Shown here: in pieces, positions 1 through 6,000 of the stretch
How positions within the stretch are numbered: the stretch's first letter is position 1
Layout: every line of letters starts with the position of its first letter
Origin: Planctomycetota bacterium
GTDB taxonomy: Bacteria; Planctomycetota; UBA1135; UBA2386
Assembly (NCBI GenBank): GCA_947501605.1
Contig: CANMWZ010000027.1
Span: 1 to 55,492 of the forward strand
Length of the DNA stretch: 55,492 bases
Direction of reading: 5' to 3'
Program-made: the position numbers

Positions 1-3000
1 CAGGTCGCACTCGCCGATTCGCTCTATGCCGAGTTGAAGGCCGCCGGCGTCGACGTCTGCCTCGATGACCGCGCGTTGAGCCCCGGCGCGAAGTTCAAGG
101 ACCTCGAACTGATCGGCATCCCCGTGCAGGTCTTCGTCGGCCGCAAGGCGGCAGAGGGCGGGGTCGAGTTTCTCGTGCGCAAGGGCATGCAGAAGAGCGA
201 GTGCAGCGCCAGCGAAGTGAAGCAGAAGGTGCTCGCGGCGCTGCAGCGCTGAGTCGCCCGCTGTCGGGTGGGGGACGACCGCACTTCGACGCAGCGCGAG
301 TCGGCCCCAATCCCGAAGTCGGCGCGGCATGGTGCGAAGGCTGTGCACGGTGCGCCGTCGCCCACAACTCGTTCACCGCTCTCCGCTGCACGGTGAGCCG
401 TAGTCATTACGCGCTCGACCGCGGAATGCGCGCGTTCCGCCGCGCAAATCGGGGCTTTCGCGAATCGGCGGCATCTGCATAGTGAGTCCTAGTCTTGTGT
501 GCAGTGCCCTCGCCGGCATCGCCCTTATCTTGGACTCAAAGAACGTATTCGAAATCCTTGTGCGCGAGCACATCTCGTCGGTGAGCGCATTCTTGCTGTC
601 CTCCGTGCGCAATGCGGCGCAGGCCGAGGATCTCGTGCAAGAAGCCTTCTTGACCGCGTGGTCCAATCTTGCCCGCTATGACCGCACCCTGCCGTTCGGG
701 CCCTGGGTGCGCGGAATTGCCTGTCGTCTGCTCTGGAACCACCGCCGCAAGCTTGGTCGCTCGCGCGTGACGTTCCTCGAAGACGACGACCTTCAGGCGC
801 TCGAAGGGCAGTTCACTCGGTTCGATCGCGTTGTCGGTGACACCCTGGTCGACAAGGTCGATGCGCTCCGCAGCGGGATGCAGCGACTGACCGATCTGCA
901 GCGCCAGGTCATCGACCTGCACTACGAACACAATCTGCCATGTGCCGAGATCGCTACGCGCCTCGGCATCGGCTCCGAATCGGTGAAGAAGCACCTCCAG
1001 CGCGGGCGTGCCGCGCTGCTCCGCGAAATGGATCGTAGACTGGAGGAGCCAGCCTTGCCGATGCGCAAGGAAGCTTGAACATCCCATGCATCAGGAACCC
1101 CTCACTTCCTGGTCGAGCGAGGATGATTGGAACGAAGAGGCGCTGCGCGCTGCACCCGACGATCCGTCGGGGTGGCTAGCAGAACAGTGTTTTGTGCACG
1201 GCGTGCTCCGCGCTGCGCATCAACACACCGAAGCCGCGAATGCGGCTCGCATCTCGTCGATCATGGCTGCTATCGACCGTCCTGCAGCGTCCCGCCATCG
1301 CTGGACCAAGGTCGCGGCGGCGGCTTTGGTGCTGTGCGCCTTGGCGTGGCCGGTGCTCTTCGTCGAACACCTGCCCGAGGCCAGGGCCTCGGTGCTGCGA
1401 GGCGCTCGTTTGCTCGACGATGGCGATCGCCGGTTCTCCGTCGAAGCCATCGGCGTCTCGGACCATGGCATTGGCCAGAACCACCAGGTGTTCCAACTGA
1501 CCGCGAGACCAGGCAATCGCTTTGTGGTCATCGGCTCGCTCGACCTCGGCCCGATCCGGTTCGCGGCGATGCGCTTTGGCTGCGATGGCCAAGAGGTCTG
1601 GTTTCATTCGTTCGGGGACTCGGGCGAACTCGCCGAAGTGAAGCGAGCGGGCCCCCTGGAAGAGGCCCCGTCGCTCCTGCGCGGCATTGGCAACGTGCTC
1701 GATCTCGGGTTGCTCGACGTGCACCGGTTTGTCACGGAGATGCCGCGAGAGTTCCACCCGAAGACGTGCGGACGCATCGTCGACGAGGACGGCCAGAAGC
1801 TGCTGCACATCGAAGCGACTGGCGGACCCAAGCGGCCAGGCTTTCACCTGCAACGCGCCGACCTCAACTGCTGCGAGCAGACGGGCTGCATCGTGCGACT
1901 GGAAGTGCAGGCGGACGACGGCCTCGGCCGCACGCAACGCCTCAACTTCGTCGACCAGGGCGCGCTGGCAGTCGACGGGAGCATCTACAAGCGGCCTTGG
2001 TGAACAGCACTGGCGCGGGTCTATGATCCGCCGCCGTCGCGACGCTGGAACACCGGACTCGCGCGTCCCCGCTGTTGACCGATCCACCTCCTGAGCTCGC
2101 GCAGCTGCGCGAACTGCTTCACGCGAGCGCCGCGCCGCTCGAAGTCCGCGCCGAGTTGCGCCGGTTGCGGTTGCTCGTCGCTGGCGACGACGCGTTGGCG
2201 GCCGAACTGATCGACGCCGAAGCCCGGTGGTTGCTGCGGTTGGCCTCGCGCCGGCGGTTGTCGGCGACCTTCACAGAGGCGCCGATGGCGGCTGTCCGTG
2301 CCTTACGGGCTCGCAACTGCCGACAAGCACCCGCCACCGACGTCGATGCGCTGTTCGAGCTGGCGGCGACCGCGGCCGAGCTGCGCGTCGGGTTGGATCT
2401 CGATGGGGCCGAGGCCTTGCAACAAGCGCTGCGCGAACGTGCCGCCCTGATGTCCGACGAGGTGGCGCTGTGCCAGGAGGCCGACGAGCGGTGGGCGGCG
2501 CAGGGAGGCGGCGACGACGACCGACCGCTGTTGCTGCAGGCCGCCGTTCTACGCGGGACCGCGGCGCTGCTCGACGGGCTCGGCGCGCGCCTGCAGAGCC
2601 AGAAGCTCCGCCGCCGGGCGCGCCGCTCGCGCTGTGCTGCCGACGATCGCGAACTGCAAGGCCGGCTCGAGTCGCTGCTAGGGGGCCGTGGCGTGGTGCT
2701 GCTCGAGACCACGAGCTTTGGCTTGCTCGTGATCGTCGTCGGGTTGCTGGTCTTGCAGAGCGTGCTGCCGTTAGGGGACGCGACCTTGCGCGCGATGAAC
2801 GCCATCGATGCCGTCGCTGGTTGCTGGTTTGTGCTCGAGTTCGCCTTGAAGCTCGGGCTCGCGCCACGACGCGTGTCTTGGTTCTGCCGCAATGCGCTGA
2901 CCGATCTGCTCCCGGCTCTGCCGGCAGTCCTGTTCTTGCTGCCGGCACCGTCGTTGCCCGGTGGTGCGCAAGATGCCGTCGCGCTTCGAGTCTTGCGGTT

Positions 3001-6000
3001 CTTCCGCATGACTTCGGCGGCGCGCTACGTGCAGGCGTTGCGGCCGCTGCTGCGGTCGGTGCGGCTTGTGTTGCTACTGGTGCGCGGCATGGATGGGACC
3101 GTGCGACGCTTCCGCGACGTGCTCGATCGGACCTTCGTCTTCTTGGCCGTCCCGGTGCGCGAGTCGGTTGCCGTCGAGAGCCGCCGCGATGTGCTGTTCG
3201 CGGCACTGCATCGCGAGCAGACGCTGTTTGCAGCACTTCCGGCCGAGGCTCAAGACGAACTGCTGCGGCTGAATCTCGGCGAGATCGCGACGCGAGCCAG
3301 CGCGCTGCCAGGCCGTTGGTCCGAGCCCGATGCCAGGAGTGGCACTCGTGACATCGCCGTGGATTCGGCGTGCGAGTTCTTGTGGACGCTGCGACCTCAC
3401 GATGTCGAGCGCTATTTGGGGCCAGCCGACGTGCGCGCGATCGATCGCATCGTTCGGGTGTTGCGCATCCCGCCGCTCGGGTGGTTGCCGATCTTGCGCC
3501 GATTTCGTGTGCACCAACGACTGGAGACGGCGGAGGAGCGCATCGTCGCGTTCGGACGTCGTATCGCCGACTGGCTGATGAGCTGGCAGGAACGGCTGCA
3601 GTTCTTCGCTGACCTGCATGGGATCGTGACCGGGCCGCAGATCCTCGATCGCGTGGCCAGCGCGATGGTCAAGGCGAGCCAGCGCCCAGCGGTCCGGCTC
3701 CTGCTGTTCGGCGGCCTGTTCGCCGTGCTCAATCTGTTTTGGGAAGAGAACTGTCTGTCCACCATTGTCGGGTTGCCGCTGCTGCGGCTCGGCAGCGTCT
3801 GCCTCGTGCTGCTGGCGACTGGCTGGTGGCTGAAGCGCATCGCCGGCGATGCCAGCGAGACCTATCGCCTCACGAGTGAGGCTCATTTCGTCGCGCTGCT
3901 AGGGCTCGTGAAGCAGCGGCACGAGGCAGAAGATGTCGAGTTTCTCGCGCGACGAACGATCGCAGACGCGGCCATCGGCGACACACCCGGACTGTTGCGC
4001 CACCAGTTGGCGAACACACGCGCCGGCGTGCCCGTCGACGTCGGTGGCTTCGATGAGCGCGAGGAACAACTCGCGAGTCGCGTGGCGCTGCTCTACCTCC
4101 ACTTCTTGGGCGGCGCGCTGCTGCACAAGAGTGACGTCAAGACCACCGAGCAGTTGCTGGCAAACCTGTCGCTGGAGAGTCTGCGCTACGCGCATCTGGG
4201 CTTTACCCGCAGGGACAAGCAACGCTTGCGTCGATTGCGCCTTGACGACGGCTCCGTTCTGCGCGGGCCATTTCTCTGGTTCCGCTTCATCACCGAGTCG
4301 ATCGCCGTCGAGACCAGCAAGCGCATCCTGGAGTACAACCGCCGCTGCGTGCCGCTTTTGGAGCGCGCGATGCTGTCGCCGCAGCGCCAGCAAGCACTCG
4401 TCGATTGGCTGCAGCAGCGATGCGAATCACGCGCGGGGCGGACGATCGAGCGACTTCCGGCTCCGGGGTCTGGCACGCGCTTTGGCACGACGGAGTTCCA
4501 TGCCTTGCACTTCCTCACCGCGGATCAAGAGCGCGATGCGCACGTCGAAGCGCTGTTTGGAACCGAAGTGCTCAGGGCCTTGCGCGCGGATCGCCGCAAC
4601 ATGGTGCGCGCGATCTTCGGCATGCGCTCGGCGCAACAACTGGCTGGATCGACGCGGACCTTCAACGCTTGGCAGACCTACTGGGCGCGCCTGTCGCATG
4701 GCCGCATCCTGCTGTTGCCGATCCTGCTGCCGGCACGGGCGCTGCGTCTGCTGGTCTGGGTCGTTGCCCGCATCCGGCAGATCGTCCGCGAGGTGCTCGC
4801 GCCTCAGCTCGAGATGCGCCGTCGTGAAGACGCCGTTACGACCTTCTCCGTGGCGCTCCGCAAGATCCACCGCATGAAGGCCCCGGGTCTGCTGGAGGCC
4901 ATTTCGATGCGCCTCGACGTCGACCCGGTCTACAGCGGTGCTGCCGCTGCGTTTGGTGAGGCGCAAGCCGGAGAACCGGTCGAGCTGCAGCGAGACCTCG
5001 ACTTCTTGCTGCTGCACGAACGCGAGCGTGCGACGTTCTTGGCTGCAGCGGAGCGCAATCGCGAACAGGTGGCACGGTTGCATGCGGCGTTGCAGTGGTT
5101 GCCTCAGATTGGCGATCCGGACGCCTCGGCGGCGGCGAAGAACGACGGCGAGCTGGCGGTGACGATTGCATGGATCACCGATCGCGAGCGCGTGCGCACG
5201 CTGACTTCGGCGGAGGCCTTCCGGGTCATGGAGTTGCCCGGCATCCTCGCCGGCGAAGGCGATGTGCGGCTGCTCCGTCGCGTAGCCTGGTGGGTGTGCG
5301 ACCTGGTCTCGGCGCATCCGGTCGATCGGTGGTTGATCCAGCAGCGCATTCCTGTCTCGCGCCGAGGTGCGCGTCGATTGCGTGCCGCGTGGTTGCGCGA
5401 CAGTGGCGTCCGCGCCGTCATCCAGGCGTGGAACGAACTCGATCCCGGCGCTGACCCGGTGGCCGTAGCTGCCGGGCGCTTCCGCGAGATCTGGCGCCAG
5501 GGTGCCGAAGTGCGCCGCCAGTTGGTCTCGTTGCGCGCCATTCAGTCGTTGTCGGTGCTGGACATTCGCAACTACCGAGCCCTCGTGTTCGACCTCGGGG
5601 CCTACGCCGAAGATGGCGAGGATCCGTCACTTGCCCGCAATCTGCCGTGACCAAGCAGCCGCGGCAGTGGGAAAGGAGCGATCAGAGCGGCGGTATCGGC
5701 AGCGTCGTTCTTGGTGCGGCTGCCACGCCGGTCCGCCACGCCTGCAGTTCCTCGAACGTCGCGTGAGGTGCCAGACGCGCGACCTTCGAGAGCAGCAGGC
5801 GCGCGTGTCCCGATGTCTCGCGCAGTTCCTCGTCCGGGTCCTCGTCGGCACTCGCGAGCACGAGCATCTCGTCGAGACCGGCGACATCGCCCGCTGCGAT
5901 CCGGAGTCGTGCGAGGTGGTACTGGAGGATCGGCGCGAAAGCCGCGCTCTGAGTCGGGATCCCGTCGCGAGCGCCGACCAGTTCGAGGCAGTAGAGGGCG

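Follow-up and report, generated by a model that had tools for sequence, protein, structure and literature searches.

Can a bacterial protein carry the voltage sensor of an ion channel and yet not be a channel? This question is raised by P0001, a protein encoded near one end of the 55,492-nucleotide stretch of Planctomycetota DNA analyzed here (the window). An earlier note on this DNA had described a voltage-sensor-like domain (VSD) without recognizable selectivity filter, followed by about 850 further residues of a novel kind, and had proposed that it is coupled to a cytoplasmic effector, with a possible link to the adjacent ECF sigma factor. The source of the gene is a freshwater Planctomycetota. 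The open reading frame is present as the note had stated (Table 1), and its start codon agrees with the 'MT' N-termini of full-length homologs.

A predicted voltage-sensor domain in a large Planctomycetota family

P0001 belongs to a family of 325 representative clusters (E <= 1e-30), and 57 out of 301 Planctomycetota genomes contain a member. The VSD, a linker, a conserved motif, a transmembrane hairpin and a 576-residue all-alpha domain follow each other in fixed order in this large family, and all of the best 150 of 720 profile matches either show this arrangement or represent shorter pieces of it. The N-terminal helical domain is restricted to the subfamily of the window, phylum-wide homologs aligning only from about residue 175-240 on. 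P0001 is predicted to be a six-helix inner-membrane protein with both termini in the cytoplasm, since Arg and Lys are abundant in the loops ahead of S1, linking S2 to S3, behind S4, ahead of TM5 and behind TM6. Contigs assembled from metatranscriptome libraries of lake and sediment samples span the gene, which fits transcription in situ; carried-over DNA, which such libraries can contain, could contribute. Conservation was assessed over 139 relatives (25-62% identity) and in a smaller alignment of 32 sequences, while all structural statements on P0001 rest on predicted models.

Table 1. Features of the locus, with positions in the window and, for parts of P0001, residue numbers.
Feature	Residues	Position	Strand	Basis or remark
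ECF-type sigma factor gene		482..1078	+	ORF opens at GTG 482, 198 aa; likely start TTG 530
Putative single-pass anti-sigma-like gene (P0004)		1086..2003	+	305 aa from ATG 1086; ORF opens at 1008
P0001, VSD protein	1-1191	2075..5650	+	1191 aa, TTG start; single copy in the genome
N-terminal helical domain	1-190	2075..2644	+	AF2 pLDDT 61-92, all helices
VSD, S1-S4	195-347	2657..3115	+	Ion_trans 215-329; VIA-align fold matches; conserved D245, F252, E255, R272, D277
S4	301-330	2975..3064	+	Arg 305, 308, 311, 317, 323, 327, 330 read from sequence
Cytoplasmic helical linker domain	350-505	3122..3589	+	AF2 helices
Most conserved motif of the family (FFADLHGIVTGPQILDR)	509-526	3599..3652	+	directly precedes TM5
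Hydrophobic hairpin, TM5-TM6	536-585	3680..3829	+	hydropathy; short variable outer loop
All-alpha cytoplasmic domain	616-1191	3920..5647	+	AF2, 52 rows

With P0001, Pfam yields a single family at E <= 1, namely Ion_trans, which scores 23.6 bits (cut-off 25, E 3.3e-5) and aligns through positions 7-122 of its 241-position profile; score, E value and span are identical to those reported before. Among 14 distant relatives, 12 match Ion_trans, seven of them above the 25-bit cut-off (26.8-38.1 bits), and the match always covers the S1-S4 half. The Kv-type matches among PDB sequences also recurred: full-length P0001 gave 18 matches at E <= 1, of which 17 are Kv4.2, Kv2.1, Kv4.3 and Kv3.1, the best E being 0.012 where a shorter query had earlier given 6e-4, and a profile of the 32 sequences returned 35 voltage-gated channel chains out of 36 matches (best Kv2.1, E 2.2e-4), confined to query residues 205-342. 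Hydropathy revealed again the hydrophobic segments S1-S4, 543-585 and 880-895, and AF2 places the VSD helices at 176-230, 235-262, 266-286 and 301-321/323-350.

Fold comparison led to the same group of proteins. In a comparison with 48,161 chains by VIA-align, the eight best matches were all VSDs (Z 9.9-10.9), with rmsd values of 2.9-3.7 over 112-128 residues except for 7e87_B, whose alignment reaches into the hairpin as well (12.7 over 193 residues); VSDs or S1-S4 modules make up 29 of the best 50 rows. Kv4.2 (7e7z; Z 10.9, rmsd 2.9, 117 residues) and the phosphatase Ci-VSP (4g7v; Z 10.9, rmsd 3.4, 128 residues) are joint best, and KvAP (1ors) matches with Z 10.0 and rmsd 3.3 over 122 residues.

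The residues expected of a charge-transfer site are present in the family, namely an aromatic and an acidic residue in S2, an acidic residue in S3 and a further one in outer S2, which we take to be the counterparts of Kv1.2 F233, E236, D259 and E226. Position 252 is Phe in 103 and Leu in 36 of the 139 relatives, the acidic positions are kept almost throughout (D245 138/139, E/D255 138/139, D/E277 129/139), and the spacings around F252 (F-7, F+3) equal those of Kv channels. Among the residues called invariant before, F252, R272, D277, P283, R308, R330 and R337 remain so in the 32 sequences, while D245, P280, R311 and R317 reach only 90% or more; R305 is also invariant there. Basic residues follow the three-residue spacing of S4 through R323 (R305, R308, R311, R317, R323), R327 and R330 coming after P324. 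Out of 139 sequences, Arg is found at positions 305, 308, 311, 317, 323, 327 and 330 in 99, 109, 122, 128, 93, 111 and 139, respectively. P0001 itself, with S314 and Q320 where 89 and 103 of the relatives have Arg, has lost two S4 arginines of its family, within which Arg occurs at up to nine positions spaced by three. Collectively, residues 195-347 constitute a canonical predicted voltage-sensor domain. Since conservation over 139 sequences coincides with a fold match, a chance origin of this likeness is excluded, and the earlier claim of a VSD emerges strengthened.

The region after S4 and its possible role

The linker is modeled with mean pLDDT values of 50-89 per 10-residue block (mostly 66-89 over residues 371-500) in the full-length AF2 model, and within the full-length protein it matched neither a family nor a fold. 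The motif that follows is kept in nearly all of the 139 relatives (D513 139, G516 135, T519 116, D525 131, R526 117), and its residues 513-526 are invariant across the 32-sequence set. When the full-length monomer was modeled, pLDDT stayed below 50 in S4 and in the most conserved motifs, including this one, which may reflect an oligomer or a partner missing from the model. The hairpin occupies the place of S5-S6 and is as conserved as the VSD (R537 126, P538 136, R541 135, G573 136, C576 124, G583 134, W585 138 of 139); in fold comparison it matched nothing more specific than generic helical hairpins.

This hairpin does not resemble the pore of voltage-gated channels. Positions ~130-241 of the Ion_trans profile, which represent its pore half, are unmatched, the alignments stopping at position 119-130 of 241 in all 13 matching members. 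TM5 and TM6 are joined in P0001 by an unconserved loop of about seven residues (WEENCLS), and the corresponding region 552-566 varies across the family from 14 to 80 residues (median 24), so that neither a re-entrant P-loop nor a conserved selectivity filter is found between the two helices. Within TM5 and TM6, conservation of charged or clearly polar residues was not seen, only S574 (45/139) and C576 (124/139) being of note. The VSD is not followed by a pore module like that of voltage-gated channels, as had been claimed, and the novel character of the ~850 conserved residues is likewise borne out.

Most of these residues belong to the C-terminal domain, for which AF2 gave a compact and confident model (576 residues, 52 rows, pLDDT 89.7, pTM 0.88). 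Twenty positions are invariant in 52 sequences, and Arg or Asp accounts for many of these. Foldseek returned no PDB match at E <= 1e-3, VIA-align against 48,161 chains gave none that reached Z 5 (best 4.9), and the search of BFVD none at all. No stand-alone version was found: the 27 short matches are all from Planctomycetota, most of them lie on contigs only a few kb long, and several carry the label partial. As this compact fold is without known relative, no activity can be named for it.

The reading we favor, with about even confidence, is that P0001 is a voltage-controlled effector which is not a channel. A change in membrane potential would move S4, and the Arg-rich cytoplasmic continuation of S4 (R330, present in 139/139, R337, D340) would pass this movement on to the invariant acidic motif, with D513 and D525, that lies where the hairpin opens to the cytoplasm. 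From there it would be relayed to the large C-terminal domain, whose activity or partner binding would be switched. If so, P0001 may allow the cell to monitor the voltage across its own membrane. Of the earlier proposal, the VSD without recognizable pore thus stands, and its coupling to a cytoplasmic effector is plausible.

A possible but somewhat unlikely alternative is an unconventional voltage-gated channel, in which the TM5-TM6 hairpins of a multimer line a pore devoid of P-loops that is gated by the VSD; the motif before TM5 or parts of the C-terminal domain would perhaps contribute to its lining. The hairpin indeed comes after the VSD like S5-S6, is universal in the family and has the near-invariant residues G573, C576, G583 and W585. 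Low pLDDT values in the monomer coincide with the most conserved segments, a pattern sometimes seen at oligomeric interfaces, and some family members are named 'ion transporter' by NCBI. Residues 733-849 of the C-terminal domain align with the pore domains of CatSper, Cav and Kv1.3 in four rows, at Z values (3.7-4.4) which are at noise level. Against a channel speak the unmatched S5-P-S6 half of Ion_trans, the variable loop, which leaves no place for a selectivity filter, the lack of conserved charged or clearly polar residues in the hairpin and an Arg/Asp-rich C-terminal domain that is modeled as a compact soluble globule.

The sigma factor neighborhood and the remaining readings

The upstream ECF sigma factor is real (Sigma70_r2 46.8, Sigma70_r4_2 46.9, Sigma70_ECF 21.6 bits in Pfam; TIGR02989 111.6 bits, under the cut-off of that model); it has regions 2 and 4 but lacks region 3, and its start was inferred from alignment with the GTG-GA starts of homologs. 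The second half of the described pair is less certain. P0004, 8 nt downstream, fits an anti-sigma factor by its position and its one hydrophobic helix (WTKVAAAALVLCALAWPVLFV), but it matches no Pfam family and reaches only 15.1 bits (E 0.018) against a cut-off of 100 with the NCBIfam antisigma model. Its Atlas neighbors are unnamed Planctomycetota clusters, and in the nearest named one (score 0.92) 13% of the members carry zf-HC2; the assignment as anti-sigma is therefore putative.

Homologs of both genes lie directly upstream on the same strand at 39 of 54 loci of the subfamily, with the VSD protein at 42-61% identity. On the subfamily tree, the trio occupies 38 of 50 ingroup rows, is spread over the tree and needs about nine changes; the pair is missing at 12 ingroup loci. 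Upstream comparison in the subfamily revealed one conserved promoter-like motif per locus before the sigma gene and none before the VSD gene. At this locus, no terminator-like site was found between the three genes, and the junction 2003/2075 is bridged by RNA-library contigs from three runs of two studies. The three genes probably form one transcription unit in the subfamily, and expression of the VSD gene is then likely tied to that sigma factor. Outside the subfamily the sigma neighbor is absent: it was found at none of 17 loci of the wider family by tblastn and at one of 17 by Pfam, the latter downstream. The suspected sigma link is hence firmer than before within the subfamily and does not extend beyond it.

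It has been considered that the VSD protein is the input of the anti-sigma/ECF sigma pair, membrane potential being converted into transcription. The retention of the trio and an N-terminal domain that is specific to its subfamily would agree with such a role. However, the wider family has the same core of VSD, hairpin and C-terminal domain without upstream sigma factor, the pair is dispensed with at the twelve ingroup loci mentioned, and genes behind sigma/anti-sigma pairs are commonly members of the regulon, which makes this role improbable. As the pair is kept in the subfamily and absent from the wider family, the data fit co-regulation in one clade, by co-transcription or regulon membership; a signaling link from the VSD to the sigma factor is hypothetical.

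It is still less probable that the VSD fold is a mere membrane anchor or a relic which no longer senses voltage. The Ser and Gln at two S4 positions that are mostly Arg in relatives, and the Pfam score under the cut-off, would be in line with decay of the sensor; yet the gating-charge positions and the counter-charges at 245, 255 and 277 are conserved across 139 sequences of only 25-62% identity, and a mere anchor needs no such conservation. That the VSD itself conducts protons or ions, the remainder being regulatory, has the precedent of Hv1, a VSD able to conduct without pore domain, but is very improbable in view of the S4 arginines, of which the family has up to nine, the retained hydrophobic plug residue at position 252 (103 Phe, 36 Leu) and the S1 of P0001 (FGLLVIVVGLLVLQSVL) without acidic residue in its middle.

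Comparison with known systems

Hv1 resembles P0001 in having a VSD without separate pore domain. It is a short protein whose S4 carries three arginines and whose S1 has, in its middle, an Asp as the acidic selectivity residue. P0001, with 1191 residues, seven arginines in the S4 region, an S1 without acidic residue and a very large cytoplasmic part, is not of this type. The VSDs of Kv channels (Kv4.2, Kv2.1, Kv3.1, KvAP) are the best sequence and fold matches; they share with P0001 the S1-S4 bundle, Arg at every third residue of S4, the acidic residues in S2 and S3 and the aromatic plug. In contrast to these channels, P0001 lacks S5-P-loop-S6, T1, KChIP or other channel domains and continues for ~850 residues of a novel kind after S4.

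In the voltage-regulated Na+/H+ exchanger SLC9C1 (PMC10620092), a VSD controls a target that is not a tetrameric pore. It is among the listed fold matches (8pcz) with a Z of 8.6, but its rmsd is 25.4 over 218 residues, and it differs from P0001, which has no transporter domain and only two further transmembrane helices. Ci-VSP resembles P0001 in that its VSD is joined to a cytoplasmic module in place of a pore. P0001 is not itself a voltage-sensing phosphatase, as neither a PTEN-like phosphatase nor a C2 domain was found (Ion_trans only in Pfam at E <= 1; no NCBIfam family). It differs from Ci-VSP by its prokaryotic origin, by the hairpin and the 160-residue linker placed between VSD and effector, and by an all-alpha effector whose fold has no known match. 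P0001 would work in principle like the voltage-sensing phosphatase, with an effector of novel fold instead.

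A canonical voltage-sensor domain without a channel-type pore

The earlier note had reported that Ion_trans is the sole Pfam family detected in the 1191-aa protein P0001 and that its relatives of solved structure are Kv channels. Both observations were reproduced: Ion_trans scores 23.6 bits (cut-off 25) over residues 215-329, on positions 7-122 of the 241 in the profile, and Kv4.2, Kv2.1, Kv4.3 or Kv3.1 account for 17 of the 18 PDB sequence matches at E<=1. With a 32-sequence profile, voltage-gated channel chains represent 35 of 36 PDB matches (best Kv2.1, E 2.2e-4), all within residues 205-342, and no PDB match was obtained for residues 350-1191. 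Similarly, 12 of 14 distant relatives (25-35% identical) match Ion_trans, 7 of the 14 above the cut-off (26.8-38.1 bits), always within profile positions 2-130, which correspond to the S1-S4 half.

The full-length AF2 model of P0001 (pLDDT 71, pTM 0.45) was compared, without the use of Foldseek, with 48,161 solved chains. The top eight matches are voltage-sensor domains (VSDs), including those of Kv3.1, Kv4.3 and Kv1.3. Kv4.2 (7e7z) aligns with Z 10.9 and an rmsd of 2.9 over 117 residues, the voltage-sensing phosphatase Ci-VSP (4g7v) with Z 10.9 and 3.4 over 128 residues, and KvAP (1ors) with Z 10.0. Since a Z of ~11 alone is weak for a helical bundle, what carries weight is that the top rows are all of one kind; VSDs or S1-S4 modules make up 29 of the best 50, aligned to residues 195-353.

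The residues expected of a working sensor are also retained among 139 family members. In S2, D245 is found in 138, position 252 is Phe in 103 and Leu in 36, E/D255 is kept in 138 and K/R259 in 134; further conserved positions are R272 (132), D/E277 (129), P280 (133) and P283 (138). The spacing of D245, F252 and E255, together with D277, corresponds to that of the charge-transfer centre in Kv channels, where an outer acid and inner acids accompany an aromatic plug. In S4, Arg occupies positions 305, 308, 311, 314, 317, 320 and 323 in 99, 109, 122, 89, 128, 103 and 93 members, respectively, and this series is followed by P324 (120), R327 (111) and R330 (139/139). P0001 itself departs from this series at positions 314 (Ser) and 320 (Gln), both of which are Arg in most relatives. 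Collectively, three independent lines of evidence, from family sequence, fold and functional residues, agree that the VSD of P0001 is genuine and canonical.

Beyond S4, the pore half of Ion_trans is not matched: in each of the 13 proteins that match, the alignment ends at position 119-130 of the profile. A hydrophobic hairpin, TM5-TM6, contains the near-invariant residues R537, P538, R541, G573, C576, G583 and W585, and its outer loop, of ~7 residues in P0001, is variable across the family. Positive residues stand beside every cytoplasm-facing end, suggesting that both termini of the protein are cytoplasmic. A channel pore module is absent from P0001. The main alternative to a non-channel function is an unconventional pore, which we consider possible, if doubtful; the hairpin is the conserved membrane element that follows the VSD, and no conserved charged or clearly polar residue was found in TM5 or TM6.

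A large C-terminal domain and a fixed architecture

The most conserved C-terminal motifs have pLDDT <50 in the full-length model, for which the alignment was shallow. Folded alone with 52 diverse rows, residues 616-1191 (hereafter the C-domain) gave an all-alpha model with pLDDT 89.7, pTM 0.88 and no segment below 50. With this model, Foldseek returned no PDB entry at E<=1e-3 (TM ~0.1), the highest Z that VIA-align reached over 48,161 chains was 4.9 (threshold 5), and the viral folds of BFVD gave no match. The full-length model, compared by Foldseek, matched nothing beyond global all-helical noise (TM ~0.08), residues 620-1191 yielded no usable match in the ESM Atlas, and NCBIfam and PADLOC placed P0001 in no family. 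Because query models of more than 400 residues, such as this one, can miss single-domain matches, the predicted C-domain is best described as having no known fold found, a weaker statement than a new fold shown.

Several identities were considered for this region. Four Fic proteins occur among the weak fold rows of the C-domain (Z 3.9-4.8); the C-domain lacks the Fic motif, HxFx(D/E)GNGRxxR, and most relatives have Arg in place of H676, which led us to reject this identity, as well as that of an HD-phosphohydrolase, whose HD doublet is not conserved. In four fold rows, residues 733-849 (window 4271-4621) align to channel pore domains (two CatSper entries, Cav 6kzp and Kv1.3 7ssv; Z 3.7-4.4, rmsd ~3 over 71-80 residues). 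A pore domain at this position was rejected on these noise-level scores, though the recurrence of four channels is odd. Segment 878-896, a candidate seventh TM helix, contains conserved Arg and is part of a long helix in the confident globular model, where it is probably a buried core helix. Twenty residues are invariant in the 52 C-domain sequences: G731, W735, F736, Y754, N755, F808, D839, R840, R845, F848, N864, P882, R929, R933, D950, Y953, D974, R1154, D1163 and G1175. Speculatively, the abundance of Arg and Asp among them may denote a putative charged-ligand binding site.

A word-based search returned 186 clusters, of which the best 120 are mostly 1,150-1,240 aa long, with few shorter; every taxon-bearing source name among these 120 is Planctomycetota. 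An exhaustive profile search gave 720 representatives at E<=1e-3 (325 at E<=1e-30), and the best 150 of the 720 either have the VSD-to-C-terminus architecture (1,130-1,650 aa) or are partial sequences (~400-1,060 aa). In a sample of the phylum, P0001 is matched at E<=1e-5 in 57 of 301 genomes and 49 of 238 genera, the match being limited to the VSD part in two of the 57 (G071 and G165). Relatives outside the subfamily that shares the N-terminal domain (residues 1-190) align only from residue ~175-240 on, with longer and different N-termini. No stand-alone C-domain was found among shorter proteins; the 27 matches are all from Planctomycetota, mostly on short contigs, some partial, and are probably fragments. 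The architecture of the family is fixed, and comprises a VSD, a conserved hairpin and a large, confidently modelled domain without known relatives.

Linkage to an ECF sigma factor and its putative anti-sigma partner

The gene of P0001, single-copy in a 4.65-Mb genome (91% complete), follows those of an ECF sigma factor and of P0004, a putative single-pass anti-sigma-like protein (Table). The sigma ORF opens with GTG at 482, and the GTG-GA... starts of its homologues point, by alignment, to TTG at 530. The ORF of P0004 opens at 1008, in overlap with sigma, its start being probably the ATG at 1086. Genes beyond P0001 lie on the opposite strand and include pseudopilin-like genes and an EamA transporter; the three minus-strand ORFs in window 5682-8615, all convergent with the VSD gene, together look like a pseudopilin cluster.

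Table. Features of the locus (window positions) and of P0001 (residues)
Feature	Position	Strand	Remarks
Aminoacyl-tRNA synthetase gene, 3' end	1-252	+	HGTP_anticodon; precedes three co-directional genes
ECF-type sigma factor	482-1078	+	Sigma70_r2 + r4_2 (Pfam)
P0004, 305-331 aa	1008/1086-2003	+	One hydrophobic helix; no Pfam family; weak NCBIfam 'antisigma' match, E 0.018
P0001, 1191 aa	2075-5650	+	TTG start
ORF, 437 aa	5682-6995	-	Convergent with VSD gene; no Pfam family
PilX_N-like ORF	6892-7989	-	21.7 bits, under cut-off
Prepilin-type N-methylation protein	8001-8615	-
ORF, 798 aa	10135-12531	-	No Pfam family
DUF4139 protein	12592-14229	+
BBP2 beta-barrel porin	14257-15813	-
Arg-rich helix	residues 323-350
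Helical linker	residues ~350-505
Motif FFADLHGIVTGPQILDR	residues 509-526		Most conserved of family; D513 in 139/139
TM5	residues 536-555		Hydrophobic hairpin
TM6	residues 563-585		Hydrophobic hairpin

In the phylum sample, sigma and P0004 homologues lie upstream of the VSD gene in two genomes of the window's own taxonomic family and, by tblastn, at 0 of the other 17 loci. A Pfam scan of 90 flanking ORFs identified one ECF sigma factor, downstream, in locus L042, and no neighbour common to the whole family was found. Five loci from one family of the sample have their own conserved neighbours, other than the sigma pair: by Pfam, NYN-domain ORFs in L043 and L050, a short-chain dehydrogenase in L036 and L050, and DUF7088/ABC_transp_aux in L036 and L043; L048 and L049 share neighbour clusters of the five by blastp only.

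The subfamily, searched in genome contigs with a 32-row alignment, comprises 73 loci. Most are labelled Planctomycetota; some labels are narrower, a few go no further than 'bacterium', and one reads Luminiphilus. The latter, L092, is a fragment of the VSD gene (53% identical) on a 2.7-kb contig of a MAG labelled as this gammaproteobacterium, which probably reflects misbinning and not gene transfer. Upstream sequence of 2 kb or more is available for 54 loci, and in 39 of these the sigma and P0004 genes stand directly upstream, on the same strand, with identities of 53-72% for sigma and 30-54% for P0004. In a FastTree tree of 53 rows (52 of these 54 loci and the window, two loci with ORFs <1,000 aa being dropped), 38 of the 50 ingroup rows have the trio. 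They are dispersed across the tree, with ~9 changes versus 13.2 in shuffles, and none of the three outgroup rows has it. This fits an ancestral linkage which was lost repeatedly. At the level of the clade, the VSD gene is linked to the ECF sigma pair in an operon.

At 34 loci (L054-L119), the sigma gene is preceded at ~30-50 nt by a conserved promoter-like motif, TGTCCC-N16-17-(C)GACAAT, which occurs exactly once per locus and never before the VSD gene. Only 7-9 nt separate it from the GTG start codon of sigma, a distance which suggests a leaderless or near-leaderless transcript. The motif is absent from window 400-540 and from the three nearest relatives (L052, L053 and L094); these four share instead a GCATA(A/G/C)T element ~45-60 nt upstream. 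A sigma-70 promoter scan returned 0 sites and a terminator scan 4 (4.6 expected), none of them between the sigma, P0004 and VSD genes of the window. Contigs of three metatranscriptome libraries (two studies) cover 1104-5765, and records 1441-2477, 1946-2342 and 1999-2258 bridge the 2003/2075 junction; such contigs may hold DNA and cannot prove a single transcript, and their cover is consistent with in-situ transcription. All three RNA runs start at 1104-1143, past the sigma stop (1078), and a DNA run of the same sample extends upstream, which hints weakly that a transcript of the P0004/VSD pair starts near the end of the sigma gene. The sigma gene stretch 208-1035 has no RNA-library contigs in the three runs, missing cover which proves nothing.

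Control of the sigma pair by the VSD protein appears unlikely. Equally hard to credit is a complete pathway from voltage to transcription, in which the VSD would read the membrane potential and control the co-operonic P0004 and ECF sigma factor, the relay being the C-domain and the subfamily-specific N-terminal domain. If true, a dedicated transcriptional programme would respond to membrane de-energisation.

Proposed mechanism and comparison with known voltage sensors

The reading we favour, at roughly even chances, is that P0001 is a voltage-controlled effector and not a channel. Movement of S4 would pass through its cytoplasmic extension (R330, R337 and D340) to the acidic motif (D513 and D525), and from there to the hairpin and the C-domain, whose activity would be switched. 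Beside the sensor residues kept across the family, a VSD reduced to a relic anchor is very unlikely, and Hv1-like conduction most improbable.

To our knowledge, VSDs outside ion channels are confined to a few eukaryotic proteins, namely voltage-sensing phosphatases, Hv1, SLC9C1 and TMEM266, and those of bacteria and archaea are known as channel parts. Passages of a 2025 review of VSD diversity (PMC13661669) name prokaryotic VSDs only within channels, and a full-text literature search, covering part of the journals, found no paper on the P0001 family, which occurs in about one in five of the Planctomycetota genomes sampled. Should this VSD move charge, prokaryotes would use the voltage sensor of channels to control a non-pore function, a new effector domain would become available for study, and bacterial sensing of their own membrane potential would become directly testable. 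In contrast to known prokaryotic VSDs, which reside in channels, the canonical VSD of P0001 is fused to a non-pore module with, judging from its predicted structure, an apparently new fold.
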